Under the pieces are notes generated by a model that was given only the letters and a program-made list of their open reading frames with translations, was not told the DNA's origin and made no database searches. Position numbers and translations under genes: made by a program. Below are positions 15,757-51,792 of a stretch of DNA of 64,000 nucleotides, one piece after another; positions within the stretch are counted from its first letter, which is position 1, and each line of letters begins with the position of its first letter. Location of the stretch: IMG/VR virus record IMGVR_UViG_3300030102_006999. One strand, 5' to 3'. The stretch is from an uncultured virus (IMG/VR IMGVR_UViG_3300030102_006999). Taxonomy: Duplodnaviria; Heunggongvirae; Uroviricota; Caudoviricetes.

Positions 15757-16371
15757 ATGTCAAAAGTATTATTAAGAGAATATTATGCTCTTTGTGAAGG
15801 TGGTGTATGTCAAGATTTGCTCACCGAAGCCGAAAAAAGAGATATTAAAGAAAATAACGCAATGTATTTAACCGGACTTATGCAACAATGCGATGTGCAG
15901 AACGGCAATGGCCGCGTGTACCCGGAAAAGGTTCTTATGAGAGAGGTCAAGAACTACCAAAAGCTTGTAAAAGAAAAAAGAGCATTAGGAGAACTAGACC
16001 ACCCAGATGACTCTGTTATCAATTTGAAAAATGCAAGCCACATGGTTACAAACATTTGGGCTGACGGTCCGAAAGTTATGGGTACTGTCAAGGTTCTATC
16101 AACCCCGGCAGGAAATATCCTTAAATCCCTTGTAGATAGCGGGTGCCAGCTAGGAATTTCATCTCGCGGTCTTGGTTCTGTTAGAGAATCGATGAATGGT
16201 GTTGTCGTTGAGGACGATTTTCAGCTTATTTGTTTTGATTTCGTTTCAGAACCAAGCACACCAAATGCATTTATGAACTTGCAAGAAGGCAAGCAATACA
16301 AAGAACCGAACATTTTTACCAAAGCCGATAGAATTAATCGAGCTTTGAATGATATTTTGGGTGATAAATGA
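15757..16371 (+). CDS. Prohead (head maturation) protease, gp21-like
   Basis: NGNGRVYP, ALGELDHP, SHMVT, TPAG, LGISSRGLGS, FDFVSEPSTPNAF. Confidence 0.96.
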   Translation: MSKVLLREYYALCEGGVCQDLLTEAEKRDIKENNAMYLTGLMQQCDVQNGNGRVYPEKVLMREVKNYQKLVKEKRALGELDHPDDSVINLKNASHMVTNIWADGPKVMGTVKVLSTPAGNILKSLVDSGCQLGISSRGLGSVRESMNGVVVEDDFQLICFDFVSEPSTPNAFMNLQEGKQYKEPNIFTKADRINRALNDILGDK

Positions 16372-17590: not shown

Positions 17591-18586
17591 ATGTCTTCAT
17601 TGTTAGAACAGGCGATTATCGACGCAGCTGCCCTGAAAGACGCAGCAATTAAAAACGCCGAGACCGCACTTTTAAATAAATATTCGAATGATATTCGTGA
17701 AGCAGTAGAAAATCTTCTAGAACAAGATGAAGAACAAGCTGGCGCTCCAGAAGCAGATTTTGAGCCAGATATTCCTTTGGCAGCGGCACCAGAAGAGGCC
17801 ATGGCAGAGGAAACAATCGTTTTGGACTTCGAAGATTTAAAAACTATGGCTGAAACCTTGGCAGAAAAAGACCAAGAACTTATTGGAGACGAAGTATCTC
17901 ACGATGCAGCCGCTCCAGAGGGTAGCACCAGACCTCCAGCGCCAGTTAGCGCTGAAGAAGATGTTACCACAACAGAAGTCCCTGTTACTTTAGAAGAGGA
18001 AATCTCTGCTGAAGACCTAGAAGGACTCCTTGAGGAGCTTATCGTTGATATTGTGCCTCAAAAAGAAGGTTGGGTTGGAACTCCCGACTCAATTATGGAT
18101 TATAAAGAAGAGCAAGAACTTGCTCGTCGTGCTGCAACAGAAGCACAAGAACAAATTGAAGCGTTGCAAGATGCAAATAGCGCCCTAACAAATGAGAATG
18201 TTGATCTCAAGGGAAAAAACACAAAGCTTTTGGAAACCTTGCAAACACTTAAAGAACATTTTGATAACGTAAACCTTTCTAATGCTAGATTGGTTTATAC
18301 GAATAAAACTTTGGCTAATGGCTCGTTGAATGGGCAACAAAAATCAAAAATTGTAAAAGCATTATCTGAAGCAAGTTCAATCGAAGAAGCAAAGGTTATT
18401 TTCGAGACTCTAGAAAGCGCAGTGGGAAGTGTTACAGGTAAAGCGCGTCCACAATCACTCCGCGAGACTTTAGAAAGGCCTTCTGCCACTTTACCTAGAA
18501 GAGCGGCTAAAACTGTCGAAAGTCCACAGATGGACAGAATGCAGATTCTAGCCGGAATTAAGAAAACACCAAAGGAGAACAATTAA
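17591..18586 (+). CDS. Prohead core scaffolding protein (gp22-like)
   Basis: Acidic coiled coil directly upstream of the major capsid gene; many L/I-x-E sites; ends RMQILAGI. Confidence 0.75.
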   Translation: MSSLLEQAIIDAAALKDAAIKNAETALLNKYSNDIREAVENLLEQDEEQAGAPEADFEPDIPLAAAPEEAMAEETIVLDFEDLKTMAETLAEKDQELIGDEVSHDAAAPEGSTRPPAPVSAEEDVTTTEVPVTLEEEISAEDLEGLLEELIVDIVPQKEGWVGTPDSIMDYKEEQELARRAATEAQEQIEALQDANSALTNENVDLKGKNTKLLETLQTLKEHFDNVNLSNARLVYTNKTLANGSLNGQQKSKIVKALSEASSIEEAKVIFETLESAVGSVTGKARPQSLRETLERPSATLPRRAAKTVESPQMDRMQILAGIKKTPKENN

Positions 18587-18588
18587 AA

Positions 18589-20295
18589 ATGTCTATTCTT
18601 AATAAATTAACTGAAGGCATCGTTCGCAGAGACCTCTCCAAAGAAGGTGCGGCTCTTCTCTCCAAGTGGGAAAAGACCGGACTTCTAGAGGGTCTAAACG
18701 ATGAGCGTACCAAGCATGGTATGGCTTCCCTTCTTGAAAACCAAGCAAAAGAACTTCTTCGCGAAGCTTCTTCAATGCAAACTGGCGATGTCGAAGGCTT
18801 CGCTTCTGTTGCATTCCCTATTGTACGCCGTGTATTCGGTGGCTTGATCGCTAACGATCTTGTTTCTGTCCAACCAATGAGCTTACCATCCGGCCTCATT
18901 TTCTTCTTGGACTTCACTTACACCAATAGCCGTTTGGACTACGCTAGTGAGTCTTCTGTATACGGTGGTGGCGTTGTCGGTTCTCAAATCACTGGCGGTA
19001 TTTCGCTTAGTGATAACGAAGCCGAGCAAAGCTTCTACGCTTTGAACAACGGTTATTCTTCACCAACAGCTTCATTAACCATCACAACTACTGCAACTAT
19101 TAGTGACGGTTTAGTTGGCGGTCTATCATCCGGTGTCGCTGCTGGACTAGAAATCTCCAAAGAAGTAAGGTGGGACGCAGACCTTGCGCTCGATGATGCT
19201 GTAGCGTTTTGTGATATTGACTTGACTTCAACTCAAATGAACGTAAGAGATCTTGTCACAATTACTCTCTTCAACGCCTCCGGAGACCCACTATTGAACC
19301 AAGTTCGTCGTTTAACACGCGAAATTTCTCCAAAGGTCTACCGTGTCTTTGTTTCTCTGCCAAAACCGGCGCTTGCATCAGATGCAGTATCCCAACTTCA
19401 GAGCGCTACCCGCGTTGATTTCGTCATTGATGATAATTTCGCCAACGTTGGAGCAGGTTCTATTGGCGCTGTTGTCGGTGCAACCGAGTGGGGCCTTGAA
19501 GGCGAAGCTGGAATTCCAGAAATCGACATCAAGGTTGATTCTATCGCTGTCACCGCGAAGACCAAGAAGCTTAAAGCTAAGTGGACACCAGAATTGGCTC
19601 AAGACTTGAACGCATACCATAACTTGGATGCCGAAGTTGAGTTGACTTCTATCCTTTCAGAGCACATTGCTCTTGAGCTTGACCAAGAAATCTTGGAAGA
19701 CCTCGTGAAAGGCGCAACTGCTGGTACTTTGTACTGGTCTCGCAATCCGGGCGAATTTGTTAATCGCCAAACTGGTGTGTCAATCACAAGCACCTTTGGA
19801 CCTCCAGACTTCACTGGTAACGTCAGCGAATGGTATGAAACCTTGGCTGAAACAATTAATGACGTGTCTGCACAGATTCACCGCAAGACTCTTCGCGGCG
19901 GCGCAAACTTCATCGTATGTTCACCTGAAGTTGCCAACCTCCTTGAGTTCACCGCTGGATTCCGTGGAGCTGTTACTCACGATGATGATCGTGGGCAGGT
20001 TGGAGCAGTTAAAGTTGGTTCCTTGAGTAAGAAGTTCGACGTTTATGTTGATCCTTACTTCCCAAGAAACGTAGTACTTTGTGGACGTAAAGGCTCTTCT
20101 TTCCTTGAAAGCGGATACGTTTACGCACCATACGTGCCACTCCAGATGACACCTACAATCTTCGGTACCGAGGACTTCGTGCCACGTAAGGGCGTGATGA
20201 CTCGCTATGCGAAGAAGATGGTTCGTCCAGATATGTACGGATTAGTTATCGTTACTAACCTTGCAAATCAACAGACCGCTCCAGCCGGACCATAG
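18589..20295 (+). CDS. Major capsid protein (gp23-like)
   Basis: LLENQ, PIVRRVF, VSVQPMSLPSGLIF, KLKAKWTPELAQDLNAYHNLDAEVELT, YAPYVPL, GVMTRYA. Confidence 0.97.
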   Translation: MSILNKLTEGIVRRDLSKEGAALLSKWEKTGLLEGLNDERTKHGMASLLENQAKELLREASSMQTGDVEGFASVAFPIVRRVFGGLIANDLVSVQPMSLPSGLIFFLDFTYTNSRLDYASESSVYGGGVVGSQITGGISLSDNEAEQSFYALNNGYSSPTASLTITTTATISDGLVGGLSSGVAAGLEISKEVRWDADLALDDAVAFCDIDLTSTQMNVRDLVTITLFNASGDPLLNQVRRLTREISPKVYRVFVSLPKPALASDAVSQLQSATRVDFVIDDNFANVGAGSIGAVVGATEWGLEGEAGIPEIDIKVDSIAVTAKTKKLKAKWTPELAQDLNAYHNLDAEVELTSILSEHIALELDQEILEDLVKGATAGTLYWSRNPGEFVNRQTGVSITSTFGPPDFTGNVSEWYETLAETINDVSAQIHRKTLRGGANFIVCSPEVANLLEFTAGFRGAVTHDDDRGQVGAVKVGSLSKKFDVYVDPYFPRNVVLCGRKGSSFLESGYVYAPYVPLQMTPTIFGTEDFVPRKGVMTRYAKKMVRPDMYGLVIVTNLANQQTAPAGP

Positions 20296-20323
20296 TCTAA
20301 ACTTGGTAAATACTAAAAATAAT

Positions 20324-20355
20324 GCCCTCCCACTTTTTGTGGGGGGGTTTTGTTT
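20324..20355 (+). terminator. Rho-independent terminator after major capsid gene
   Basis: GCCCTCCCAC-TTTTT-GTGGGGGGGT stem followed by TTTGTTT. Confidence 0.75.
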
Positions 20356-20363
20356 ATTTAGAA

Positions 20364-20371
20364 ACTATTTA
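20364..20371 (+). promoter_or_regulatory. Putative late promoter ACTATTTA of the neck/PrkA operon
   Basis: Lies between the terminator and SD AGGAGG of the neck gene. Confidence 0.6.
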
Positions 20372-20390
20372 GCTCTAGGAGGTGCTATTA

Positions 20391-21662
20391 ATGGCTTTAC
20401 CAACACTCACGCCGGCCAGTCAAATGAGCAAATCAATTTTGGCTCCAACCGGTAGCACCGCTGACGTAACTTCCGCTTTACCCTTGGGTGTATATTCGGA
20501 TTCCGCAGCATTCATATCAGGCGCCGCAGCACAGGTCGCCTACACATATCAGAAGCTAGGTGGAGATGTCTTGGACATTGAGCTAAAGACATCGAATGTT
20601 TATGCAAATTATGAAGAGGCATGCCTAGAGTACAGTTATCTTATTAACTTACATCAATCAAAAAACGTTTTATCTGATGTCTTAGGTCAAGCAACAGGGA
20701 CGTTCGATGAAAAAGGGGAATTAATATCTGGCCCAGAGGGCGTTAACTTAAAATTCCCTAGAGTTATGTTCGAGTATGCAAGAAGAGTTAGCGATGGGTT
20801 TTCTTTTGAAGCAGGTGTCGGAGGAACAATACCGATTTATTCTGCATCTTTTGAATTGCACGAAGAACAACAAGATTATGACCTTCAAGCTATTATTTCC
20901 GGCTCATCTGCTACAGGAATAGACCCAGTGGGCGGCGCAAATGCTCCATATGAAGGCGTGGTTGGAGATAAGAGAGTTATCGTCAAAAAGGTTTATTACA
21001 AAACCCCTTCTGCTATGTGGAGATTCTTTGGATATTACGGTGGATTAAATGTAGTAGGAAATTTAAACTATTACGGACAATATACAGACGACTCTACCTT
21101 TGAAGTAATCCCTGTTTGGCAAAACAAGCTTCAAGCCATGGCGTACGAAGACCATCTTTACACAAGATTGTCCCACTACACATTTGAGTTAAGAGACAAC
21201 AAATTAAGAATATTTCCAATACCAGAACTTTTGAGTACATATCGTTATATGTGGGTAGAATTTAGTGTTATCCCTAACAGCTGGGACAATAATGAAAATT
21301 ATGATTCTGGAGTAGATGGAATTAACAATATAAATACTATTCCGTTTGACAATATCCCTTATGAGAATATTAATGCAATAGGCAAGCAATGGATTCGCCG
21401 CTTTGCTTTGGCTCTATCTAAAGAAACTTTAGGGCAGATTCGAGGAAAGTTTCAGACAATTCCGATACCGGGAGAATCCGTAAATCTAAATGCTGATGCT
21501 CTTTTATCTCAAGCAAAAGATGAGCAGGATTCTTTAAGAACAGAACTAAAAGAAATGTTGGATCAGATGACATACACAGAAATGGCAAAATCTGACGCAG
21601 AAAAGTCCGAATCAGTAGCAAATATACAAAAGAAAGTGCCAAACTTAATCTTTCAGGGGTAA
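20391..21662 (+). CDS. Neck/head-completion protein (gp13-like)
   Basis: KLGGDVLDIEL, WIRRFALALSKETLGQIRGKF..IPIPG..VNLN..LLSQA; follows the capsid gene. Confidence 0.75.
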   Translation: MALPTLTPASQMSKSILAPTGSTADVTSALPLGVYSDSAAFISGAAAQVAYTYQKLGGDVLDIELKTSNVYANYEEACLEYSYLINLHQSKNVLSDVLGQATGTFDEKGELISGPEGVNLKFPRVMFEYARRVSDGFSFEAGVGGTIPIYSASFELHEEQQDYDLQAIISGSSATGIDPVGGANAPYEGVVGDKRVIVKKVYYKTPSAMWRFFGYYGGLNVVGNLNYYGQYTDDSTFEVIPVWQNKLQAMAYEDHLYTRLSHYTFELRDNKLRIFPIPELLSTYRYMWVEFSVIPNSWDNNENYDSGVDGINNINTIPFDNIPYENINAIGKQWIRRFALALSKETLGQIRGKFQTIPIPGESVNLNADALLSQAKDEQDSLRTELKEMLDQMTYTEMAKSDAEKSESVANIQKKVPNLIFQG

Positions 21663-21666
21663 ATAA

Positions 21667-22542
21667 ATGTCAAGTGAAAAAGATAAATATGATGGTTATC
21701 GCCCCTACTTTAAGGAAGGTGAGACAAAAGCAGAAACTCCAGAGTTGAAAGAAATCTCCTTGATGCCATCAACCATAGAAACAATTGATATGGCCCTGAA
21801 TGACTGGCTAACTGAAGAGTTAAATATATTTTGTACAACTAATGAAGGCTGGAGAAAAGTTCCGCTTATTTGGTCAATGCCAGAGCGCTCTTTTCAAGTA
21901 AAAAAAGATAAAGACCTTAGAAACAAGAAGGATATTTTCACGTTGCCTGTTATGTCTATAGAAAGAAAGTCTTTAATAAAAGATCCTTCTATGAAAGGTG
22001 TTGCATGGTCTCATTTACCTCAATATAATGATGCTCGCGGCGGAAGAATAGAAGTTGCTAGAATGATAAATCAGAAAAAAACTTCTAATTTTGCTAATGC
22101 ACAAGCTAGAAAGAAATTTGGACAAAACAACTTTCCGTTTAATAATAAAAAAGTCGTATATCAGACAGTATCAATGCCAGTGCCAACATACGTTGTTGCT
22201 AACTACACCTTGATAATACAAACAGAATATCAACAACAAATGAATGAGATTTTTACTCCGTTTATTGTGTATACAGGACAGATAGATAACTTCTTCATAA
22301 AAAGAGACGGTCATAAGTTTGAAGGCTTTATTCAGGGAGACTTTTCTTTAGATAATAATTTATCTAACTTGGGAGAAGAAGAGAGAACATTTAAGACACA
22401 AATTGACCTTAAAATATTGGGATATTTACTAGGAGCAGAAAAGAACGAAGAGCGACCAAAAATAGCAATAAGAGAAAATGCTGTAAAAATAGAGATTCCA
22501 AGAGAAAGGGTTATCTTCGGAGACAAAAAGGATCATGAATAA
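21667..22542 (+). CDS. Tail terminator / sheath stabiliser (gp15-like)
   Basis: KVPLIW..PER, LPVMSIER, P..V..NY.L.I.T.YQQQMNEI; position in the neck cluster. Confidence 0.6.
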   Translation: MSSEKDKYDGYRPYFKEGETKAETPELKEISLMPSTIETIDMALNDWLTEELNIFCTTNEGWRKVPLIWSMPERSFQVKKDKDLRNKKDIFTLPVMSIERKSLIKDPSMKGVAWSHLPQYNDARGGRIEVARMINQKKTSNFANAQARKKFGQNNFPFNNKKVVYQTVSMPVPTYVVANYTLIIQTEYQQQMNEIFTPFIVYTGQIDNFFIKRDGHKFEGFIQGDFSLDNNLSNLGEEERTFKTQIDLKILGYLLGAEKNEERPKIAIRENAVKIEIPRERVIFGDKKDHE

Positions 22543-23402
22543 TGGCTAACGATAACAATAAGTGGTCTAAACCATCTAATCCTCCTCCTCCTTTGTTTTT
22601 GGGAGAAAAAGAGAGAGATTTAGTAAAACAGGTCAACGATGAACTTTTAGAAAGGGTAATAGGTCAACAAATTTTGTATCTTCCGATATCTATGGATAGG
22701 ACAAACTTTCATCCTTTATATGGAGAGGCTATCGAAAAAAGTTTTCTTCCTCCTATAAGAGTACACGCAATGGTGGAATTTGAAGGAATCGCTACCTCTA
22801 CTGATCACTACGGTTTGGACAAAACAATTCCGATAAATGTAAAGTTTCATGAAAGAAGACTACACGAAGATCAGGATTTGTACGTTAGAGAAGGAGACTA
22901 TGTACAGTACGGAGATTCTTTTTTTGAAATAGTTTCGCTTACTGAAGGCAGACAACTTTTTGGTCAAGTGGACCATTTATTTCAGATTGAAGCAAAATGT
23001 ATAAAAACAAGAAAGGGCTTAATAGATATTAATGTTTTACCGCCACTCACACAAGCTGCACTCCATGCCAGCCAATCTTCGACTGAAGACTCCGGAAGCT
23101 CCGGTTCTGGAAGCCCCGGCTCTACAACATCTCCTGTAGAAATTACTGGAGATATTGTCAGAATAGTGTACAGTTTTGTGGCTTCGGGGGATATTAGTCC
23201 CGGAACAGACTTGACATCTATTTTTGGAATCGTCGACGCACTAGATCTAGCCCCTACGGCTGTTTATGATTCTGGTCTTCGTATGAGCTTGACAGACAGT
23301 CCGACCACCGGAGAGTATTATATAGATAGCGGAAATATATATAATACTTTTGAGATATTTTCTGGCAGCAGAATAACACTAGAGGTTTTAACAGTAGTAT
23401 GA
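22542..23402 (+). CDS. Neck protein (gp14-like) with Ser/Gly linker and C-terminal extra domain
   Basis: IGQQILYLP...LYGEA, VREGDYV..GDSFFEI. Confidence 0.65.
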   Translation: MANDNNKWSKPSNPPPPLFLGEKERDLVKQVNDELLERVIGQQILYLPISMDRTNFHPLYGEAIEKSFLPPIRVHAMVEFEGIATSTDHYGLDKTIPINVKFHERRLHEDQDLYVREGDYVQYGDSFFEIVSLTEGRQLFGQVDHLFQIEAKCIKTRKGLIDINVLPPLTQAALHASQSSTEDSGSSGSGSPGSTTSPVEITGDIVRIVYSFVASGDISPGTDLTSIFGIVDALDLAPTAVYDSGLRMSLTDSPTTGEYYIDSGNIYNTFEIFSGSRITLEVLTVV

Positions 23403-24595
23403 GTATTTTTAGAGAACATAAATCTTCAGCAGATAGATCTGCTGCCGATAGAAAACGCCATAAAACAAAAATCGATAAAGCAATCCGAGAAGGTATCAAG
23501 GATGTTATAGCCGATGAGTCTATTATTGGACAAGATGGCAATAAGAAAGTAAAAATACCGGTAAAGGGTATAAAAGAATATCAGTTTGTTTACGGTGAAA
23601 ATGACCAAAACAAAAAAGCCGGCTCCGCCGGCAATAAACAAATAAAAAAAGGCCAAGTCCTTAGAAAAAAAGGACAAAAAGGCAAAGGGAAGCCTCAAAA
23701 GGCCAGCAAAGATGCAGGCGAAGAATACTATGAAGTAGAAGTAACGTTAGAAGAGTTGGCAGAATATCTTTTTGCCGATCTCGAACTCCCAGATTTAGAA
23801 AGAAAAAAGTTTAAATTTATTAAAGATAAAAAGTTAAAGCGTTCTGGATATAGAAAAAAGGGAATGAGAACTAAACTGGCTAAAAAAGAAACGATCAAAA
23901 GAAAAATTAGAAGAAAAAAGAGAGCCCTTGCCGCCGGAACTTGGAATCCTGAATCTGGAGAAAGATTTCCTTTTCATGAAGATGACCTAAAATTTAAGCA
24001 CATGAAAGAAAAAACAGAAAACACCAATTCGGCAGTCATATTCTTCTTGATGGATGTATCTGGTTCGATGGATAAACAAAAGAAGTACTTAGCAAGAAGT
24101 TTTTATTTTATTTTATATCAATTTCTTAAATATAAATATGACAATATAGAAGTAGTGTTTATTTCTCACTCTACAGAGGCAAAAGAGGTTACCGAAAAGG
24201 ATTTTTTTGAAAGAGCTTCAACTGGGGGCACTTTGGCATCTACAGCTTTGGAACTGGAGAAAGAAATAATTAAAAAAAGATTTCACCCTTCTGTGTGGAA
24301 CATATATACTTTCTACTCTGGAGATGGAGAGAACTGGAGTTTTGATAATAAGAAAAGTTTTGACTTATTTTTGTATCTTAAAGAAGTCAGTCAAATGACT
24401 TGTTATGCAGAAATCAATCCAGCGTCTCCTCATGATACTTTTAGAAGCAGTTTATTTTACAATACAGAAAATGACGAAGGAAGCCTTTGGAGAATCTTGC
24501 ATCCTTTGGTTGATACGTCATTTAGGATTATTAAAATTAGCGAAGGTTCACATATTTGGCCCTCGTTTCAAAAAATGTTTGGAGGGGAGAGATGA
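23399..24595 (+). CDS. yeaH: YeaH/YhbH (DUF444) VWA-domain protein
   Basis: DRKRHK..I..AI.....D.IA.ESII, VKIPVKGIKEYQF, LELPDL, MIDAS MDVSGSM, GGT..S, SGDGENW. Confidence 0.9.
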   Translation: MSIFREHKSSADRSAADRKRHKTKIDKAIREGIKDVIADESIIGQDGNKKVKIPVKGIKEYQFVYGENDQNKKAGSAGNKQIKKGQVLRKKGQKGKGKPQKASKDAGEEYYEVEVTLEELAEYLFADLELPDLERKKFKFIKDKKLKRSGYRKKGMRTKLAKKETIKRKIRRKKRALAAGTWNPESGERFPFHEDDLKFKHMKEKTENTNSAVIFFLMDVSGSMDKQKKYLARSFYFILYQFLKYKYDNIEVVFISHSTEAKEVTEKDFFERASTGGTLASTALELEKEIIKKRFHPSVWNIYTFYSGDGENWSFDNKKSFDLFLYLKEVSQMTCYAEINPASPHDTFRSSLFYNTENDEGSLWRILHPLVDTSFRIIKISEGSHIWPSFQKMFGGER

Positions 24596-25899
24596 AAGAC
24601 TGGAGCGTTAAGGAACTTCAAGATTGGGATGAAAAGATTTGCAAAATAGCAAAAGAAAAATACGATCTAGATTGGTTTCCTATTGAATATGAAATTTTAG
24701 ACTATAAAGAAATGATTGGGGCTATGGCGTACACAGGCCTTCCGACTCACTACAGACATTGGTCTTTTGGCAAAGCCTTTGAGCGAACGGCAACTAGATA
24801 TAATTTAGGCATGGAAGGGCTTCCTTATGAAATGATTATTAATAGTAATCCAAGTATAGCATATTTGATGCTAGAAAATCCCATGAGTATACATTTGTTA
24901 ACTATGTCTCATTGCGTTGGTCATTCAGATTTTTTTAAAAACAATAGAATGTTTCAAGACACAGATCCCGACAATGTTTTAAGCAAGTTTAAGTCGGCTT
25001 CCAAAAGAGTCCAGAAATATATTGAAGATCCAAATATTGGAATAGAAAAAGTAGAGAAAATTTTAGATGCTTGTCACTCTATACAATATCAAGTAAGGCG
25101 CACCCCGGGTATGCCAAGGAATGCAAAAAACATCTTCGAAGATAGAGAAAACCGCGTGCAAGACACTTGGGATCGCGAAGATAATCTATTTATGGATGAC
25201 AAAAAAGATTATGATCTTTTAGGTTTTATTCGAAAAAATGCTAGAAACCTTGAAGATTGGGAAAGGGATTTGATAGAGATGGTGGAGAGAAGGTCTAAAT
25301 ATTTTATCCCACAGGCTAAAACTAAAATTATGAATGAAGGCTGGGCAGTCACTATTCATGAGAAGATTATGCACGATTTAGAACTTCCAGACAAGTATCA
25401 AATCGCTTTTCTAAAGTCCCACAATCAAGTTGTGAGGCCTATTGTTGGAAGGATTAATCCTTACCATCTAGGGTACACCATATTTAAGAAAATAGAAGAA
25501 AAATATGGCTTTGAAGAATGCAAGATTGTAAGAGAAGTACATGACGATGAATCTTTTATAAGAAAATATTTAGATCAAGAACTTTGTACAGATTTAAATC
25601 TATTCAGCTATTCTTACCAGCAAAAACAACAAAATTACTCAATTAATGATATTTCTGACAAAGAAGGGTGGAAAAGCGTTAGGAGCGCTCTAATTAGTAA
25701 TGTGGGGTTAAACAGTGTTCCGGTTGTTTGCGTCACAGATTATGACTCAAGGAATAATACTTTGCATATAACACATGAACATGACGGAAGAGACTTAGAT
25801 TTGTCTTACGCTAATAAAGTTTATGATTATATTAGATATCTTTGGGACGACGATGTATTTTTTACCTCTATTATAGAGGGTGAGATTTGGGAATTTTAA
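24592..25899 (+). CDS. spoVR: SpoVR/YcgB family protein
   Basis: GLPTHYRHWSFGK, YEMIINSNPSIAYL, HCVGHSDFFKNN, TKIMNEGWA, NPYHLG. ATG 24592 overlaps the yeaH stop. Confidence 0.92.
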   Translation: MKDWSVKELQDWDEKICKIAKEKYDLDWFPIEYEILDYKEMIGAMAYTGLPTHYRHWSFGKAFERTATRYNLGMEGLPYEMIINSNPSIAYLMLENPMSIHLLTMSHCVGHSDFFKNNRMFQDTDPDNVLSKFKSASKRVQKYIEDPNIGIEKVEKILDACHSIQYQVRRTPGMPRNAKNIFEDRENRVQDTWDREDNLFMDDKKDYDLLGFIRKNARNLEDWERDLIEMVERRSKYFIPQAKTKIMNEGWAVTIHEKIMHDLELPDKYQIAFLKSHNQVVRPIVGRINPYHLGYTIFKKIEEKYGFEECKIVREVHDDESFIRKYLDQELCTDLNLFSYSYQQKQQNYSINDISDKEGWKSVRSALISNVGLNSVPVVCVTDYDSRNNTLHITHEHDGRDLDLSYANKVYDYIRYLWDDDVFFTSIIEGEIWEF

Positions 25900-25900
25900 A

Positions 25901-27835
25901 ATGAAAAAGACTAATAAATTTTTGAAGTTGGTAGAAAGCCATGAGGCTAATAAGAAAAGAGAAAAGTTCTCTGGAACTTTTGCAGAATACCTTGAATTAT
26001 TGGAAGAGGACAAAGGCTTGTCAAAGCTCGCCCATAAGAGACTCTATAAAACTATTTTAGAAAAAGGTATGACAAGAATGACTGAAGACGACAGTCGATG
26101 CAACAACCTGTTCAACGGCGAAGCTGTGAGGACTTATGATTATTTTCAGGATCGCTTTTTCGGCATGGAAAGGCCGCTATCCAAAATTATGAGATATCTT
26201 CATTCTGCATCTATGAAGGGTGAAGAAAGCCGCCAAGTGCTTTTACTCCTTGGCCCTGTTGGTGCCGGTAAGTCTGCTTTGGTAGAGCATATCAAGCGAG
26301 CGCTAGAGGGGTCTGGTGCTCTTTATGCACTTAAAGACTGTCCTATTAACGAAGAACCTATTCATCTCGTCCCTAGGTCTTTGAGAGAAGATTTTATGGA
26401 TATATACGGAGTTAAAATCGAAGGAGACCTTTGTCCGGTATGTCGCCATAGACTATTAGAAGAATATGGTGGCGATTATATGAATTTTCCAGTCGTTGAA
26501 ACTTCCTTTTCTATCCGTGGCCGCAGGGGTGTTGGAGTTGTTCCACCTATGGATGCTAACACACAAGACACAAGTATTCTTATCGGAACAGAAGACATTT
26601 CTAAATTAGATCTTTATCCGGAAGACGACCCAAGAGTATTAAGTCTTAATGGTGCCTTTAACGTAGGAAATCGAGGCATAGTAGAGTTTGTAGAGGTTTT
26701 TAAAAATGAAATCGAGTTCTTGCACACAATGATTACTGCAACGCAGGAGAAGGCCGTTCCAAGCCCGGGAAAAGGTGCTATGATTTACTTCGACGGAGTT
26801 ATTTTAGCACACTGTAATGAAGCAGAATGGAATAAATTTAAATCTGAAAATACAAATGAAGCAATTCTTGACAGGATTGTAAGAGTGAATGTTCCTTATT
26901 GTCTTGAGGTCGGTGAAGAACAGAAGATTTATAACAAATTGCTGAATGAGTCTGATTTTGACGCTCATATTGCGCCTCACACTCTAGAAGTTGCTGCTAT
27001 GTTCTCTGTATTGACTCGCTTAAAAGAGTCAAACAAAGTAGATCCTCTGACAAAAATGAAGATTTACAATGGTGAAGAGATTGTAGAAAAAGGTTATATC
27101 AAGAAGGTCGATATCAATGATCTCCGAGATGAAGCTCGCGATGAAGGCATGACCGGAATCTCTACGAGATTTATTATGAAAGCTATCGACGCAGCTTTGG
27201 CCGACTCCGACAGAAATATGGTCACCCCAATCTCGATTAGGGATGCTTTGATTAAACAAGTCAAAGAGCAAGTTGTTGAAGACAGCAAAAGAGAAAGATA
27301 TTTATCATTCTTGCAGAAAGACCTTCACGACGAATATCTAAAGATCTTGGAAAAGGAAATTACAAAAGCATTTGTTTCGGCTTACCAAGAACAAGCAGAG
27401 TCTTTGTTTAACAACTATCTTGACCATGCAGAAGCTTATGTCAATAGTACAAAGGTTAAAGATAACGTGACCGGCGAGGAAATGATGGCAGACGAAGGTT
27501 TCATGTGCTCTATCGAAGAGCAAATCGGCATTGTTGGATCAGCAAGAGAAAACTTCAGGGCCGATATTACAGCTTATATGTTTGCCAAGTTAAGAAGAAA
27601 AGAAACAATTGACTGGGCATCTTACGGTCCTTTAAAAGAAGCTATTGAGAATAAGCTGCTGGATTCTGTAAGAGATATCTCCAGAATCGTAACTAAGTCT
27701 AAATCAAGAGACAAAAAGCAACAGCAGAAGTATGGTGAAATGGTGCAGACCTTGATTGACGATTACGGATATAATGAAGATTCTGCAAACGAGATTATCA
27801 AGTATGCTTCCAATAATCTCTGGCGCGATAGCTAA
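25901..27835 (+). CDS. prkA: PrkA/YeaG family AAA+ ATPase (annotated Ser kinase family)
   Basis: LLGPVGAGKS Walker A, NRGIVEFVEVFK, ILAHCNEAEW, EAILDRIVRVNVPYCL, APHTLE, EGMTGISTRF, YGY...A. Confidence 0.94.
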   Translation: MKKTNKFLKLVESHEANKKREKFSGTFAEYLELLEEDKGLSKLAHKRLYKTILEKGMTRMTEDDSRCNNLFNGEAVRTYDYFQDRFFGMERPLSKIMRYLHSASMKGEESRQVLLLLGPVGAGKSALVEHIKRALEGSGALYALKDCPINEEPIHLVPRSLREDFMDIYGVKIEGDLCPVCRHRLLEEYGGDYMNFPVVETSFSIRGRRGVGVVPPMDANTQDTSILIGTEDISKLDLYPEDDPRVLSLNGAFNVGNRGIVEFVEVFKNEIEFLHTMITATQEKAVPSPGKGAMIYFDGVILAHCNEAEWNKFKSENTNEAILDRIVRVNVPYCLEVGEEQKIYNKLLNESDFDAHIAPHTLEVAAMFSVLTRLKESNKVDPLTKMKIYNGEEIVEKGYIKKVDINDLRDEARDEGMTGISTRFIMKAIDAALADSDRNMVTPISIRDALIKQVKEQVVEDSKRERYLSFLQKDLHDEYLKILEKEITKAFVSAYQEQAESLFNNYLDHAEAYVNSTKVKDNVTGEEMMADEGFMCSIEEQIGIVGSARENFRADITAYMFAKLRRKETIDWASYGPLKEAIENKLLDSVRDISRIVTKSKSRDKKQQQKYGEMVQTLIDDYGYNEDSANEIIKYASNNLWRDS

Positions 27836-27863
27836 ATAAATAAAAAATAAAGTTTTAAAATTA

Positions 27864-27899
27864 AAGCCTTGAGTTTTCACGCTCAAGGCTATTTTTTTT
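27864..27899 (+). terminator. Rho-independent terminator after prkA
   Basis: AGCCTTGAG...CTCAAGGCT stem followed by ATTTTTTTT. Confidence 0.8.
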
Positions 27900-28115
27900 G
27901 CCTAATTCCATACTTTATTTTACTTTTGGATTTTGGCGATATACCTATAGAGAACAAGTCTACCCTTAGACTCTGTTCTCGTTTTTTTATAAAAAAGCGA
28001 TTATAAAAAAGGCTCTTTTTGAATGAATTTTTCACCTAACGGTCGGCAATTGAGAATGATGAAAAAAAGACCTAATATTTTATATTATTTCAATAATAAC
28101 AAAGGAGAATTTAAT

Positions 28116-28166
28116 ATGAAAAAAACAACAAATAAAAAGGAGGGCTTAAAACATGGCATGGAATAA
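28116..28166 (+). CDS. 16-aa upstream ORF MKKTTNKKEGLKHGME (possible leader peptide)
   Basis: SD AAGGAG at 28102-28107, ATG 28116, TAA 28164-28166; overlaps the start of the next gene out of frame. Confidence 0.3.
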   Translation: MKKTTNKKEGLKHGME

Positions 28167-31152
28167 ACCTTTACTTGAAGTTACTTACGGAGAGCCACAG
28201 ATTCTTGGAGGAGTTGATGATGGACTTCCGGGAGCAGATTACGACGACTACATTGCTGTCCCTGTATATATTAACCAACAGCTGGGAGGTACATCCTATT
28301 TAAGAGCATCTGTCCCTTGGCATGATAAGACTAAAATACAGTATGCAGGACTTCTGCTCCCTCAGACTCTTGATGCGGAAGGCAATGTGGACCAAGACTG
28401 GCGCCTCTTTGTTAATAATGATCTAGAAAAGCAGGGCCTGTATATGACAACTAACGAAATGTTGCAGAATTCAATTGGCGGAAGCGTGTCCACCGATCGT
28501 ATATACCTCTACGGCGCCTACGAATCCATATTTGATGCGCGTATTACCATCTCAAAATCTTCACGCCAATGGCCGTACTGGAGAGTATATGATAATGTCG
28601 GAGAAATACTTCCAGAGGTTGATGGAAAATTTGTCTTATTCTATCACATATTTAAACCTGTTGGAACCCAAACTGGCACCCTTGGTTGGACCGGCGTGAT
28701 GGCTTCTCCGGCTGAGAGAATTCTGAACGTCACCGGCGTCGACGACGCTTTCAACAGTCCTGTCTGGGCTGAATTTGGAGTTACTGGCACCGCGCGCCGG
28801 ATATTTGCGAATACCATTGAGGTCGATGACACAGAAGATAACGAATCCGAGAATACCTTTGAGGCGGATATCATTCACAATCCGGATACCGCTCTTTACC
28901 ATATCCATGCTGGCTTTGATACTGCAAATGCTACGATTCCTGATTATGTGGGAGATGGTTTTGTAATCGAAAGCTCACCTGATGCACCATATATAACCCT
29001 AGTAGGTAGCTATTTCCTACCTGTACACGTCGGAGAATCACTTTCGGATATTGACCCGGGCGCCATCGCGTATGATCCACAGCAGGGAGATATTTCTGAT
29101 CAAATCTCCATGCTCAACTACACCGCCTTAGAGTCAGATATAGAATTTTTATTTACCACAGCATACAACGTGACCGACGAAGATGGCAATCAGGCTCTTC
29201 AAGCAACTCGAGAGTATCAGATCAGACCAAACACAATAAGGTACTTGAGAATTCCCGCAGAATACTCTCTTGATACTCAATACGACAATTCTAATCTATG
29301 GATTAAAAAAATCACTCCTGATAGTAGTCTCACATGGTCCAGATACGCCGACTTTGATGCATGGTTCGCCGGTACTGGTAATGATTATTCTGATTACGAT
29401 TTGGCCGCTATCCGGCGATGGATGTCCCCCGCATATGAAAGCAGCTCTTATCAAGAATCGAGTTTAGCGTATCGCGGTATCTTGAAAGATGATGGCTCTC
29501 ATTGGTTCCCTGTGGATCTATCAAACTCAGTTTCGCTGAAGATTGTACTCGCTACCGCTTCTGAATTGCCAGTTGCTGAAAGCCTATCAATAATAGATTT
29601 TGAGGGAAATGTCATCGAAGAGTTTAATCTTGGCGATTTGACTTACAGTGCAGATAATGAACAATGGTTTGCTCACGCGGAATTTGATTTTGGCAGAGTT
29701 TTTGTTGTCGATGGTTACTTTCCTGTATTTGAAACTGAAGAAGCCGCTTTAGAGTCTGATTATGGAAATGGAACTAGCACCCACACACACGTCTTAAGTG
29801 ATGGTATAACTTACTTCATGCCAGACGGTATCTCCGGTGGTCCCGGTGGCGGAATCCAGTTTCATGGTGATGCTGGACCAATCAATCCATTGACTGGACC
29901 CGCAGACGGCACTCTTGCCGGCGTGGAAGGTATTTTCCCTCTCTATAGATCAGAGGCAGCAGCTGCGGCCGCTAATTTTGGGTACCCTCCCGAAGAATTC
30001 GTAATCAGCGGCATATCTTACTGGATGCCCGGTGGCCTCTCGAATGAAGAGAAGTGGGTATTAAATAATTATGGATTGATTGTTACAAACCTTCTTATGA
30101 CACTAACCCAAACTGACTCTTATGGAGACGGCTGGAATGGTGTCGAATTCAATGTTTATACTCACGAAGGCGGAACCCTTCTTTCAACAAGCACGCTTGA
30201 ATCCGGCGCAGCAGGAACAGACGTAGTTGAGCTTCCAGCTGGAACATACTTCTGGGCACTTGAGAACGGAAATTGGGAAGAAGAAACTGGTTTTGTTCTA
30301 ACTTTGGATTCAGATGGTTCTACACTAGTATCTGGAGGCGGCGCGTATGAAACCGGCACTTTCACCATTTCCGCTCCCGCAGATGCAGGCGGTGGAGACG
30401 AAGGTGCGGGCGATCCCCCACCAGTAGACGGTGGCTCTGGAGATTCTGGAGAATTCGACTGGACTTTTGATGGACAATTGTCTGATATCGTAAAGGTAGT
30501 AAAAGGTCAGGATGCATCAGGCACTATGTCTATGATGTACTTAAAGGACAACGCTGGAAGCACAGATGTTTACATCACTCCAACAGTTACTGACTTCTCA
30601 CAGTTCACTCTAATGTCATACGCCGAAACAGGAATGACTGGCACACCGGTATCTGGCGAATACGCCCACAGTGGGTGCTTTGTTGTCGGAACTACCGAAG
30701 GAAACGTGTATAAGATTCAAGTGAATACTTATGGGTCTCCTTCTTCAGCAGAATTGCTTCACGCTTTTGGTGAAGGTTCTGTAAGTTCAGTAAGCTATTC
30801 CTCTGGATCTCAAGAGTGGCTTATGGAGCATGGCGGTAAAGTCTATACAATGCCTTACTATGGTGGTGCAGTAGAAATGAAAGTGGAACTACCATCCGGA
30901 GCAAAAGTAGTAGACTTTGCAGTTGGTCCTGATGGTGTCGCTATGACCCTTCAAATGACAGATTTCAGTTTGGCTGCATATATTGCAGGCCCAGATTGGT
31001 CTGAAATTAATGATCCCTCAACTATGTCAGCAGTCTTAACTGCAATCGGCCCATCCGATTTCAACTATTTTGTTGATGTAGACATGTGGATCGCAGCCAG
31101 TTCGGATGGTTCATTTGTAACAACAAGTGATATCAACAACTGGTTAGAATAA
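28153..31152 (+). CDS. Large acidic mosaic surface/decoration protein (DUF5011-like Ig domain, DSYGDGWNG domain)
   Basis: APYITLVG...DPGAIAYDPQQGDIS...YNVTDEDGN (Ig-like); two FP(V/L)(F/Y)xxE..A...Y(F/W)MPxG repeats; DSYGDGWNG. Confidence 0.65.
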   Translation: MAWNKPLLEVTYGEPQILGGVDDGLPGADYDDYIAVPVYINQQLGGTSYLRASVPWHDKTKIQYAGLLLPQTLDAEGNVDQDWRLFVNNDLEKQGLYMTTNEMLQNSIGGSVSTDRIYLYGAYESIFDARITISKSSRQWPYWRVYDNVGEILPEVDGKFVLFYHIFKPVGTQTGTLGWTGVMASPAERILNVTGVDDAFNSPVWAEFGVTGTARRIFANTIEVDDTEDNESENTFEADIIHNPDTALYHIHAGFDTANATIPDYVGDGFVIESSPDAPYITLVGSYFLPVHVGESLSDIDPGAIAYDPQQGDISDQISMLNYTALESDIEFLFTTAYNVTDEDGNQALQATREYQIRPNTIRYLRIPAEYSLDTQYDNSNLWIKKITPDSSLTWSRYADFDAWFAGTGNDYSDYDLAAIRRWMSPAYESSSYQESSLAYRGILKDDGSHWFPVDLSNSVSLKIVLATASELPVAESLSIIDFEGNVIEEFNLGDLTYSADNEQWFAHAEFDFGRVFVVDGYFPVFETEEAALESDYGNGTSTHTHVLSDGITYFMPDGISGGPGGGIQFHGDAGPINPLTGPADGTLAGVEGIFPLYRSEAAAAAANFGYPPEEFVISGISYWMPGGLSNEEKWVLNNYGLIVTNLLMTLTQTDSYGDGWNGVEFNVYTHEGGTLLSTSTLESGAAGTDVVELPAGTYFWALENGNWEEETGFVLTLDSDGSTLVSGGGAYETGTFTISAPADAGGGDEGAGDPPPVDGGSGDSGEFDWTFDGQLSDIVKVVKGQDASGTMSMMYLKDNAGSTDVYITPTVTDFSQFTLMSYAETGMTGTPVSGEYAHSGCFVVGTTEGNVYKIQVNTYGSPSSAELLHAFGEGSVSSVSYSSGSQEWLMEHGGKVYTMPYYGGAVEMKVELPSGAKVVDFAVGPDGVAMTLQMTDFSLAAYIAGPDWSEINDPSTMSAVLTAIGPSDFNYFVDVDMWIAASSDGSFVTTSDINNWLE

Positions 31153-34258: not shown

Positions 34259-34663
34259 ATGATTAATAAGATATTTTCTTTCTTTCAAAAGAAACAAGAA
34301 GAGCCGCAAGATGCACAACAATATCCAGAGCCAGAACCAGAACCCGAACCAGAACCAGAACCCGAACCAGAGCCTGCGCCGTTACCAGATGTCATTGAAA
34401 TTCCTTGGTCCCAGTGCGCTCGAATCAAAAATATAGAAGTAGCTTTAGAAAAGGTGCACAAGGATTATAAAGAATTCTTATATAAGAATAAAATAACTGA
34501 AAAGAAGACCTTTACCTTGATCGACACATTTGAGGAAACTTCTGAAAAAGCTATTCAAGAATTGAAAGAAATCTATAAGATAGTTGATGAACAAGATTAC
34601 TATTTTGTGCTCCCTGAAGGAACAGGTCGCCCGGGCTATCTTAAAAAGAAGGAAAGCAAATAA
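34259..34663 (+). CDS. Hypothetical protein with (PE)8 linker
   Basis: ACTATTTA at 34230; CCnGAR tandem repeat at 34325-34372. Confidence 0.65.
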   Translation: MINKIFSFFQKKQEEPQDAQQYPEPEPEPEPEPEPEPEPAPLPDVIEIPWSQCARIKNIEVALEKVHKDYKEFLYKNKITEKKTFTLIDTFEETSEKAIQELKEIYKIVDEQDYYFVLPEGTGRPGYLKKKESK

Positions 34664-51254: not shown

Positions 51255-51282
51255 ACCGCAGGGAGGCATGGGTACACAGATG
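51255..51282 (+). repeat. 28-bp direct repeat copy 1 (hairpin-forming)
   Basis: ACCGCAGGGAGGCATGGGTACACAGATG, identical to 51765-51792. Confidence 0.95.
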
Positions 51283-51321: not shown

Positions 51322-51759
51322 ATGGCAACAATTGTAGAAGGAAACAAAGTACGAGTACACTATCGAGGTACTTTAAATGATGGGACAGAGTTTGATAACT
51401 CTCATGAGCGAGGCGAGCCTATTTCGGTAGATGTTGGATCTGGTCAGGTAATTCCGGGCTTTGACAATGCTCTTCTTGGTATGCAAGTAGGTGAATCAAA
51501 GACAGTAACTATCCCACCAGAAGAGGCTTATGGTCCCCTTTTGGATCAGGCTCGCACAGAAATCGACCGATCTCTTTTTCCACAAGACTTGCAGCTTTCT
51601 GAAGGCATGCCAGTTCCTCTGGCAACAGAAGAAGGCCACAAACTTTTGGGTCGTATTATTGGATTGACAGAAGAGGTTGTTACAGTTGACTTAAACCATC
51701 CGTTAGCCGGACAAACTCTAAACTTCGAAATCGAACTAGTAGAAGTAGAACAGGATTAA
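51322..51759 (+). CDS. FKBP-type peptidyl-prolyl isomerase (SlyD-like, no His tail)
   Basis: VHYRGTLNDGTEFDNS, GQVIPGFDNAL, IPPEEAYG, DLNHPLAGQTLNFEIEL. Confidence 0.95.
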   Translation: MATIVEGNKVRVHYRGTLNDGTEFDNSHERGEPISVDVGSGQVIPGFDNALLGMQVGESKTVTIPPEEAYGPLLDQARTEIDRSLFPQDLQLSEGMPVPLATEEGHKLLGRIIGLTEEVVTVDLNHPLAGQTLNFEIELVEVEQD

Positions 51760-51764
51760 CAAAC

Positions 51765-51792
51765 ACCGCAGGGAGGCATGGGTACACAGATG
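51765..51792 (+). repeat. 28-bp direct repeat copy 2
   Basis: Identical to 51255-51282. Confidence 0.95.

Follow-up and report, generated by a model that had tools for sequence, protein, structure and literature searches.

Why would a tailed phage carry a bacterial starvation system directly behind the genes for its own neck? The question is raised by an uncultured virus (IMG/VR record IMGVR_UViG_3300030102_006999), from which a stretch of 64,000 nt, here called the window, was analyzed; all coordinates are window positions. The long open reading frames (ORFs) of the window all lie on the plus strand, its gene content reads as that of a T4-like myovirus, and a megablast search with positions 18000-30000 found no near-identical cultured phage, in a collection that may lack records very close to the window. 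Between neck genes and tail sheath lie genes for a YeaH/YhbH-type, a SpoVR/YcgB-type and a PrkA/YeaG-type protein, here called the trio. The initial annotation read this arrangement as a complete system wired into the virion neck operon, serving either assembly and remodeling of the virion or control of host dormancy and starvation responses. We find that the neck position is derived and dispensable, while all 78 viral loci that span the trio keep its gene order. The evidence best fits an auxiliary cassette of host origin directed at the infected cell, for which we propose, with less than even confidence, forced turnover of host protein. Four papers (PMC9512850, PMC13684143, PMC8504454 and PMC8940887) are cited from excerpts.

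Three intact and coupled genes

Is the system complete? As in the three-gene YeaG-YeaH-YcgB system, three genes stand next to each other on one strand:

23399-24595, plus strand: YeaH/YhbH-type DUF444 protein, 398 amino acids (aa) (Pfam, motif conservation, complex prediction)
24592-25899, plus strand: SpoVR/YcgB-type protein, 435 aa (Pfam; AlphaFold2 (AF2) model with a predicted local distance difference test score (pLDDT) of 84)
25901-27835, plus strand: PrkA/YeaG-type AAA+ protein, 644 aa (Pfam; match to PDB entry 9xip)

The stop codon TGA of the preceding gp14-like ORF lies inside the ATGA at 23399-23402 that starts yeaH, the yeaH stop TGA lies inside the ATGA at 24592-24595 that starts spoVR, and the prkA ATG at 25901 stands one base beyond the spoVR stop TAA (25897-25899). 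An alternative prkA start, GTG, is present at 25880; relatives align from residue 1 of the ATG form. The canonical order prkA-yeaH-spoVR is not found in the window, where the genes run yeaH-spoVR-prkA.

Pfam matches exceed their cut-offs by a wide margin for DUF444 in YeaH (E 5.9e-106; 355.5 bits, cut-off 27), for the SpoVR domain PF04293 (E 3.2e-117; 392.2 bits, cut-off 27), and for AAA_PrkA PF08298 (E 2.8e-147; 490.9 bits, cut-off 25) and the C-terminal domain PF06798 (E 4.8e-80; 269.4 bits, cut-off 25) in PrkA. The SpoVR_C domain PF24755 scores 25.9 bits, just below its 27.6-bit cut-off; a cellular copy, L257, reaches 59.4 bits. YeaH contains D219-V-S-G-S223 (D219, S221 and S223), T278 and D309, which we take to be the pattern of a metal ion-dependent adhesion site (MIDAS). 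SpoVR contains H107-x3-H111, D113, N248-E-G-W-A252, H256 and H277, and PrkA contains the Walker A sequence G118-P-V-G-A-G-K124-S125. The motif residues of YeaH, SpoVR and PrkA are each at least 97% conserved (159, 134 and 188 aligned rows, respectively). ORFs, Pfam and alignments thereby uphold the initial description of three intact genes with MIDAS, SpoVR and Walker A motifs, and both ATGA overlaps and the one-nucleotide gap before prkA were found in the sequence as described.

With both domains and the Walker A lysine K124, the window's PrkA belongs by its sequence to the PrkA/YeaG family; the corresponding lysine of Bacillus subtilis PrkA, K108, is required for ATP binding (PMC9512850). 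PrkA-type structures are present in the PDB as 9xip, 9xiq and 9xir (9xip is titled 'Serine protein kinase'; E 1.1e-99), and a PDB sequence search found a solved homolog for neither YeaH nor SpoVR. PHROGs includes families for all three proteins, and the PrkA matches in the ESM Atlas are generic PrkA clusters only.

Conservation among viral relatives

How widely is the trio kept? An IMG/VR scan with PrkA gave at least 149 confirmed relatives, of which the best 80 (61-100% identity) were analyzed as loci. All 78 loci that span the three genes have them on one strand in the order yeaH-spoVR-prkA, with spacings of -8 to +13 nt between yeaH and spoVR and 1-69 nt between spoVR and prkA. The sole apparent breaks, in L006 and L007, consist of a single frameshift beside an N, with YeaH continuing intact in the next frame; decay of the trio in these two loci was considered and rejected, the protein being otherwise whole. 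Against six relatives, nonsynonymous change (dN) amounts to 0.07-0.13 for PrkA, 0.12-0.18 for SpoVR and 0.21-0.23 for YeaH, the corresponding values being 0.19-0.22 (capsid protein) and 0.29-0.45 (sheath), while synonymous change (dS) is saturated or nearly so. PrkA is the slowest-evolving gene of the unit and changes more slowly than the capsid protein.

The initial annotation had allowed that the trio might come from a chimeric assembly, nest among cellular sequences, or be sporadic and decaying in relatives. L004, an independent IMG/VR contig, is 100% identical to the window across the capsid-to-fiber region including the trio junctions, so the trio is not chimeric, and the G+C content of the window (0.34-0.49) is unbroken at this point (0.34-0.39 in the trio, 0.36-0.44 in its neighbors). 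Nor do the viral sequences nest among cellular ones; they form one clade. Decay is contradicted by the constant order in 78 of 78 loci and the low dN. On sporadic occurrence the outcome is mixed, since near relatives by neck genes lack the trio, as described below.

The neck position is derived and dispensable

Three genes precede the trio in the window:

20391-21662, plus strand: 423-aa adaptor-like protein of the head-tail type, opening the unit (match to phrog_211, 'head-tail adaptor Ad2', at E 4.2e-11)
21667-22542, plus strand: conserved 291-aa neck-module protein, syntenic in relatives
22542-23402, plus strand: gp14-like neck/stopper protein, 286 aa (AF2 and Foldseek fold match)

Pfam and PHROG searches gave no family match for the 291-aa protein or for the gp14-like ORF. 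The gp14-like identity given to the latter by the initial annotation is borne out by its fold. The AF2 model (pLDDT 79) has as its top Foldseek matches the T4 portal-neck-tail structure 9mkb_0 (E 9.8e-7) and 9lu7_M (E 1.1e-4; entry titled gp20-gp14-gp13), with a Foldseek probability of 1.00 and template modeling (TM) scores of 0.30-0.48, and further matches are neck/stopper proteins from many phages. The protein has about 163 aa in most relatives and 272-310 aa in the window's sublineage; the core of about 163 aa is conserved, and the C-terminal extension is a beta-rich domain (residues ~205-285, pLDDT about 90).

Is the trio tied to these genes? A gp14-like gene stands directly before yeaH in only 13 of the 74 PrkA-bearing loci with enough upstream sequence. 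An IMG/VR scan with the adaptor-like protein gave more than 600 relatives, of which the best 80 were used. Among the 20 judgeable loci with at least 69% adaptor identity, 13 have the trio behind the neck genes and seven do not; the trio-less near relatives include L097, L099, L102 and L104, whose neck adaptor is 81-82% identical. No trio was found at the neck slot in any of 44 more distant adaptor relatives. The slot is filled in L097 and L099 by an 86-aa ORF and one ORF of 1435-1582 aa, and no PrkA-family match was found in a relative of 161.7 kb that is estimated to be 72% complete.

Elsewhere in the clade the trio has other company. On four large T4-like contigs of other trio lineages, all with Gp23, it lies 66-110 kb from the capsid gene, and its neighbors there include genes for PIN-PhoH, Hsp20, helicase, NUDIX and glycosyltransferase proteins. 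PIN-PhoH is encoded in the same locus in 36 of 73 cases and directly after prkA in six (L017, L018, L024-L026 and L029). In 21 of 73 loci (for example, L021:11938-13263, L078:12245-13615 and L055:11910-13232), a conserved gene of about 440 aa begins no more than 400 nt past prkA. It weakly matches a PHROG annotated as GroEL (E 1e-13 to 2e-20) and has no Pfam match; for these reasons, we do not call it a GroEL-like chaperonin. The window itself has neither this gene nor PIN-PhoH beside its trio.

The PrkA tree places the window's sublineage within lineages that have the trio elsewhere, and from this nesting we conclude that the cassette moved into the slot between neck and sheath. The neck position is a derived and dispensable trait confined to one sublineage. 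The proposal that the system is wired into the neck by a functional tie thus loses its support, given the 13 of 74 loci, the nested sublineage, and the trio-less relatives with 81-82% identical neck genes. Of the two roles first envisaged, the same data weigh against assembly or remodeling and in favor of a host starvation response.

Origin of the trio

Where did the cassette come from? A search of 1.84 billion protein representatives returned 2168 PrkA relatives; only three full-length representatives show 50-55% identity (P0002 and P0003 at 50%), and the others reach at most 41%. Six relatives (P0005, P0009, P0011, P0026, P0040 and P0045) have 950-1570 aa, with the match to the 644-aa query split into two to four stretches; they may carry large insertions, possibly inteins.

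Among 185,579 species genomes, close copies (63-80%) lie on five contigs of metagenome-assembled genomes (MAGs); the viral gene order is seen in all three whose flanks are long enough to show it. One MAG, G008, labeled Bdellovibrionota, contains both a viral-type contig and a cellular prkA-yeaH-spoVR copy, whose PrkA is 58% identical to that of the phage and which adjoins genes for an aminoacyl-tRNA synthetase and PurF- and PurL-like proteins. In the phylum of G008, PrkA of 53-60% identity is encoded in 110 of 121 genomes sampled, with yeaH after prkA in 12 of 12 loci examined and spoVR next in the 10 with enough flank.

A PrkA tree of 101 rows (IQ-TREE, LG+G4, quick search) places 35 IMG/VR rows and three MAG-binned rows in one clade (99 by the Shimodaira-Hasegawa-like approximate likelihood ratio test, SH-aLRT). 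Its sister is a group of 12 cellular rows of the G008 phylum plus P0001 (100), with a support of 90 for the joint node; Thermus phages and RsoM2USA branch apart from this marine viral clade. FastTree trees of YeaH and SpoVR likewise recover the viral rows as monophyletic (37 of 37). In the SpoVR tree, their sister is the only full-length cellular sequence from the G008 phylum; in the YeaH tree the sister is the long-branch row of RsoM2USA, a placement that we distrust.

Taken together, the trees indicate that phages acquired the system at least three separate times, with the trio of the marine clade derived from one event involving a relative of the G008 phylum. Transfer from cell to phage is the favored direction because the cellular copies are near-universal in that phylum and have the canonical order. 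That order, said by the initial annotation to be usual in bacteria, is indeed found in 46 of 49 cellular loci showing all three genes, in a sample of 80 other loci drawn mainly from Chloroflexota, Bacillota and Acidobacteriota; the remaining three, from Bacillota/Clostridia MAGs, are permuted. The permutation noted in the window is therefore real but not unique to it, being found also in the Thermus phages phiYS40 and Lalka8.

The MAGs G007 (titled Halobacteriovorax; contigs C25 and C13) and G008 (contig C9) include trio contigs of viral type, 101 and 89 kb long, and a Gp23 capsid gene lies on a further contig of G007. Such Bdellovibrionota-labeled MAGs provide a lead to the host that mis-binning would explain equally well.

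Related systems in phages and cells

Has the trio been seen in phages before? By tblastn against 50,697 phage records, PrkA was found in 17 (29-34% identity), namely 11 Thermus phage records, the Ralstonia jumbo phage RsoM2USA, four huge metagenomic phages and Enterobacter phage LAU1; 10 of the 17 also have SpoVR. The Thermus phages phiYS40, TMA, phiLo, Lalka8/27 and MN1 carry vWA (von Willebrand factor A)/DUF444-like, SpoVR and PrkA genes, with PrkA about 33% identical to that of the window and SpoVR about 24% identical over 59-77% of the query in five records. Both phiYS40 and Lalka8 share the window's permuted order. In phiYS40, unlike the window, a further gene of 617 aa separates spoVR from prkA, and the trio lies near the terminase; in Lalka8 the trio lies between the portal/minor head protein and large terminase (TerL) genes and so beside head genes, much as the window's trio adjoins neck genes. 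The Thermus trio branches among other cellular sequences, which points to a separate acquisition.

RsoM2USA encodes PrkA, YeaH and SpoVR in the bacterial order prkA-yeaH-spoVR, unlike the window, and the huge metagenomic phages LR745206, LR756502, LR756504 and LR756511 encode PrkA and SpoVR. At 29-34% identity and in a clade other than the window's, these copies, too, appear to have been separately acquired. In the excerpts of the RsoM2USA paper, the trio genes are table entries, with one sentence on SpoVR (PMC8504454). In viromes of oxygen-minimum zones, spoVR is the most abundant 'sporulation' auxiliary metabolic gene (AMG) and was read as a means of manipulating host state (PMC8940887). Our literature search found no paper that treats the three genes as a phage operon.

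The systems of Escherichia coli (YeaG (SpdA)-YeaH-YcgB) and B. subtilis (PrkA-YhbH-SpoVR) comprise the same three full-length Pfam families, adjacent and co-oriented, with the key residues kept. The window's trio differs in belonging to a lytic-type T4-like phage, in its order, and in standing behind a putative phage motif in place of RpoS control in E. coli (PMC13684143) or sporulation-stage expression in B. subtilis. SpoVR position 108 also separates the two groups, with Cys in the viral clade and Val in cells. The nearest cellular relative is the operon of the G008 phylum, sister in the PrkA and SpoVR trees; it has the canonical order, a housekeeping neighborhood and a YeaH only 40-45% identical.

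Two further comparisons are instructive. The starvation genes of marine T4-like phages (the PhoH, Hsp20 and MazG class) are likewise cellular stress or starvation genes in myoviruses; they encode single enzymes, whereas the trio is a three-gene machine of about 4.4 kb. In MoxR-vWA chaperone pairs, an AAA+ ATPase is encoded together with a vWA/MIDAS protein, much like PrkA with YeaH. PrkA, however, stands apart as an AAA+ family with a C-terminal domain of its own, and a third partner, of putative zincin fold, is obligatory here.

Transcription signals and timing

When would the trio be made? Three signals frame the unit:

20324-20357, plus strand: intrinsic-terminator-like hairpin (10 pairs, 7 of them G-C; 20324-20348) with T-run, after the Gp23-like gene; upstream unit boundary
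20364-20371, plus strand: ACTATTTA, putative late-promoter motif, late by association only
27865-27899, plus strand: intrinsic-terminator-like hairpin (10 pairs; 27865-27890) with T-run; downstream unit boundary

The motif ACTATTTA at 20364 starts sixteen bases beyond the hairpin of the capsid gene. There are 12 copies in the window, all on the plus strand, where 3.56 +/- 1.78 are expected and 100 shuffles gave a maximum of 8; seven lie in short gaps before virion genes (17090, 17552, 20364, 34230, 34690, 37600 and 39318). By this association, we infer that ACTATTTA is a late promoter element of this phage. Motif count and hairpin scan agree with the initial view that a late motif at 20364 and a terminator near 27865 bracket the unit. 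The accompanying claim that no promoter or terminator lies within it stands insofar as no strong signal was found; two weak plus-strand hairpins (5 pairs each) are present at 22961 and 23248, and sigma70-like matches occur at chance level (49 found, 41.2 +/- 6.7 expected). Because no copy of ACTATTTA lies between 20371 and 34230 and the internal signals are of this kind, the adaptor-like gene, the two neck-module genes and the trio look like one transcription unit. Late co-expression of the trio with the neck genes, as first proposed, is a reasonable reading, given the translational coupling of the trio and its place in a single unit that runs from terminator to terminator after a motif otherwise found ahead of virion genes.

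Do relatives follow the same pattern? Of 63 distinct regions upstream of yeaH, 16 have the late-type motif CTAYTTA, of the same class as ACTATTTA, in the last 50 nt before the gene. The motif occurs in 0.6% of random windows, in no case before spoVR (0/60) and in three before prkA (3/61). All 16 are among the 51 regions not fused to a neck gene; the 12 fused regions have none. In L012, L014 and L039, a hairpin with T-run and then CTAYTTA directly precede yeaH. Sigma70-like sites (at least 10 of 12 matches) lie upstream of yeaH in five of 63 regions, compared with 2.1% of random windows. L037 has a perfect consensus, TTGACA-17-TATAAT, about 62 nt upstream, and L032 also has a sigma70-like site. 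Sigma70 promoters as the general driver of the trio were rejected, with only these five regions having them. Late-type control thus seems common, not universal, and timing may differ among lineages.

Metatranscriptome contigs X1, X2 and X5 of one study agree exactly with the window along the capsid gene (18300-20169) and along fiber-like genes between 27969 and 34120. Such contigs can neither give expression levels nor prove transcript starts, and their almost complete lack of cover over 20.6-27.8 kb carries no weight on trio expression either way. Exact contigs begin at 27969 (X5) and 27974 (X1), about 70 nt past the prkA terminator and upstream of a 999-aa ORF at 28153, a weak hint of a separate transcription unit there.

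Structural leads

How might the three proteins work together? Prediction of a YeaH-SpoVR complex gave an interface score (ipSAE) of 0.87 in three of three runs, whereas none of three controls scored above 0.00, with partner pLDDT of 85-86 and at least 90% of contacts common to the runs. Among solved complexes, 116 of 157 attain that mark, as do 2 of 215 mismatched pairs, counts that hold roughly here, where our own alignments were used. The predicted interface joins YeaH residues 1-24 and 58-91 (including the invariant D17, R20 and H21) to H56, W57, G60 and the C-terminal domain of SpoVR. As a prediction, this supports docking of the YeaH N-terminus on SpoVR.

The AF2 model of SpoVR was aligned by VIA with 48,161 PDB representatives. 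Among the 50 rows listed, residues 1-338 match mostly catalytic domains of zinc metallopeptidases or uncharacterized proteins (Z 6.1-11.2). These include M1 aminopeptidases, oligoendopeptidase F, M32 carboxypeptidases, thermolysin, LasB, angiotensin-converting enzyme (ACE) and M61, along with a few unrelated rows (TFIID subunits, YbeY). The top rows have Z 8-11.2, a root-mean-square deviation of 3.4-5.7 A and 163-197 aligned residues; values of Z 8-11 can arise by chance for helical models. Foldseek with the same model returned nothing at E <= 0.001.

H107, H111 and N248-E249-G-W-A252 are invariant over 134 rows, and N248-E-G-W-A resembles, we presume, the NExxA ('NEG-A') motif that provides the third-ligand Glu in M1 peptidases. 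H107-x3-H111 together with N248-E-G-W-A would fit a zincin-type metal site. Among 95 viral rows, position 108 (H107-C-V-G-H111) holds Cys in 92 and Val in three; among 37 cellular rows, it holds Val in 36 and Ala in one. In none of these rows is it the catalytic glutamate of HExxH; this is why SpoVR is not filed as a peptidase. As a lead, SpoVR may be a metal-binding protein of zincin fold; a literature search gave no paper combining 'spovr' and 'zincin'.

What is the trio for?

Starved E. coli cells require YeaG, for which the name SpdA has been proposed, to break down cytoplasmic proteins in a largely non-specific way, a source of amino acids and ATP for new synthesis (PMC13684143, 2026). 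PrkA of B. subtilis hydrolyzes casein in an ATP-dependent manner that needs the Walker A lysine, and kinase activity was not seen (PMC9512850). By analogy, we tentatively read the trio as a host-derived auxiliary cassette that forces protein turnover of the YeaG/SpdA type on the cell to feed virion synthesis, an explanation whose chances we put somewhat below even. That the cassette acts on the infected cell is suggested because it is mobile, dispensable at the neck, adjacent to PhoH-type genes in most lineages, repeatedly acquired by unrelated phages, and more constrained than virion proteins.

Under this explanation, one ancestor of a large uncultured marine T4-like clade would have taken up prkA-yeaH-spoVR from a relative of the G008 phylum, and the order would have been permuted to yeaH-spoVR-prkA and kept since under strong purifying selection. 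In the window's sublineage, the cassette would have moved into a variable slot between neck genes and tail sheath and lost its own promoter through the ATGA fusion to the gp14-like gene. Judging from motif and terminators, the trio would be made together with the late proteins. PrkA would be the AAA+ motor, and YeaH, the vWA protein, is predicted to bridge through its N-terminus to SpoVR, a putative metalloprotein of zincin fold. If the cellular homologs are a guide, the trio would impose on the infected cell the YeaG/SpdA-dependent starvation program, bulk turnover of cytoplasmic protein, and so free amino acids and ATP at the peak of virion synthesis in a nutrient-poor host. Such recycling of host protein would be the protein counterpart of host-DNA degradation by phages. 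A bolder version, in which the trio triggers an autophagy-like breakdown of the host proteome and SpoVR, clamped by YeaH, is the missing hydrolytic or substrate-gating component fed by PrkA, we regard as doubtful.

Several points weigh against the turnover explanation. The E. coli study concerns YeaG alone, with YeaH and YcgB unmentioned in its main text (PMC13684143). In vitro proteolysis by PrkA was followed with incubations of 0 and 24 h (PMC9512850), because of which PrkA may not itself be the protease. SpoVR lacks the HExxH glutamate, and its fold matches are of a grade that helical models can reach by chance. Late timing is read from a motif whose promoter role follows from association, late expression would leave little time for recycling, and sigma70-like promoters in a few lineages suggest that timing is not uniform. 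The 12 cellular rows of the G008 phylum in the PrkA tree are best matches, and a sister relation gives no direction of transfer. Finally, two separate acquisitions, in the window and in Lalka8, adjoin head or neck genes, which a morphogenetic role could explain.

Such a role, with PrkA and YeaH as a MoxR-vWA-like chaperone for head, neck or tail, or packaged into the virion, is one rival and would explain the place of the genes in the late structural operon. An ATGA fusion joins the trio to the gp14-like gene in one terminator-bounded unit with neck genes, the separately acquired trio of Lalka8 lies between portal/minor head protein and TerL genes and that of phiYS40 near the terminase, and the late-type motif precedes yeaH in 16 of 63 regions. 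Yet L097, L099, L102 and L104 have an 81-82% identical adaptor and the same neck genes without the trio, none of the 44 distant relatives has it at the slot, the 161.7-kb relative, at an estimated 72% completeness, has no PrkA-family match, and most trio lineages keep the cassette 66-110 kb from the capsid gene, beside PhoH-type genes. Structural proteins also diverge much faster than PrkA, giving no sign of co-evolution with a virion partner, and we judge this role unlikely.

Equally improbable in our view is signaling or dormancy control without bulk proteolysis, in which PrkA/YeaG as a kinase or regulator would block or promote a stationary-phase-like state; this covers persistence, sporulation-like programs and evasion of abortive responses, in line with proposals for 'sporulation AMGs'. 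The introduction of PMC9512850 refers to YeaG as reported to be an autophosphorylating kinase that phosphorylates AceA, the spoVR of oxygen-minimum-zone viromes was read as host-state manipulation (PMC8940887), and PhoH and Hsp20 neighbors and the sigma70-like promoters of some lineages would suit such a function. B. subtilis PrkA, however, showed neither autophosphorylation nor kinase activity (PMC9512850), retention and coupling extend to all three genes in 78 of 78 loci and are not limited to prkA, and the newest genetics ties YeaG to protein loss itself (PMC13684143). Could the trio, finally, be a neutral passenger, either cellular DNA joined to a phage contig in assembly or a recent moron without function? 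Its genes are cellular in type and close copies occur in five MAGs, but the independent contig L004 is identical over the capsid-to-fiber region, the cassette recurs in dozens of diverged phage contigs, where synonymous change is saturated and nonsynonymous change low, the viral clade is monophyletic, and G+C is unbroken at the trio; this explanation we consider next to negligible. Turnover of host protein on behalf of the phage therefore remains the reading that we prefer.

Other features of the window

The T4-like character of the window is seen in the following genes, to which tube and baseplate proteins and replication genes are added:

10464-12053, plus strand: large terminase
12057-14027, plus strand: portal
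15757-16371, plus strand: prohead protease
18589-20295, plus strand: Gp23-type major capsid protein (Pfam E 5.2e-76)
34740-37586, plus strand: tail sheath

A single 1053-aa ORF at 4854-8015 matches an SbcD-like PHROG with residues 1-385 and an SbcC-like PHROG with residues 137-1051, so that SbcD-like and SbcC-like nuclease subunits appear to be fused in one protein. An exact 27-nt direct repeat (51256-51282 and 51766-51792; 0 expected by chance) is intergenic and flanks an ORF at 51322-51759. Within the ORF at 34259-34663, a short Pro/Glu-rich repeat at 34325-34375 is where RNA contigs of all four metatranscriptome runs pile up (word depth 30-840, many loose ends and 'goes back 42-44' joints); run X3 matches solely this low-complexity repeat. 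The pile-up indicates repeat-number variants and matches from unrelated organisms.

Implications

Why does the trio matter beyond this phage? The YeaG-YeaH-YcgB system is found widely in bacteria, which express it highly in stationary phase, and its link to starvation-induced global proteolysis dates only from 2026 (PMC13684143). Its capture by phages at least three times, together with a constancy of PrkA beyond that of the capsid protein, argues that the trio works as one unit and pays off during infection. For phage ecology, this raises the idea that host protein is recycled in nutrient-poor cells, and 'sporulation AMGs' of ocean viromes such as spoVR may be re-read as parts of the YeaG-YeaH-YcgB system and not of sporulation. 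The phage trio also offers a compact set of sequences for biochemistry, with docking of YeaH on SpoVR and the zincin-like fold of SpoVR as structural leads. If the bolder version given above is true, the phage copies would represent the bacterial system in compact and strongly conserved form.

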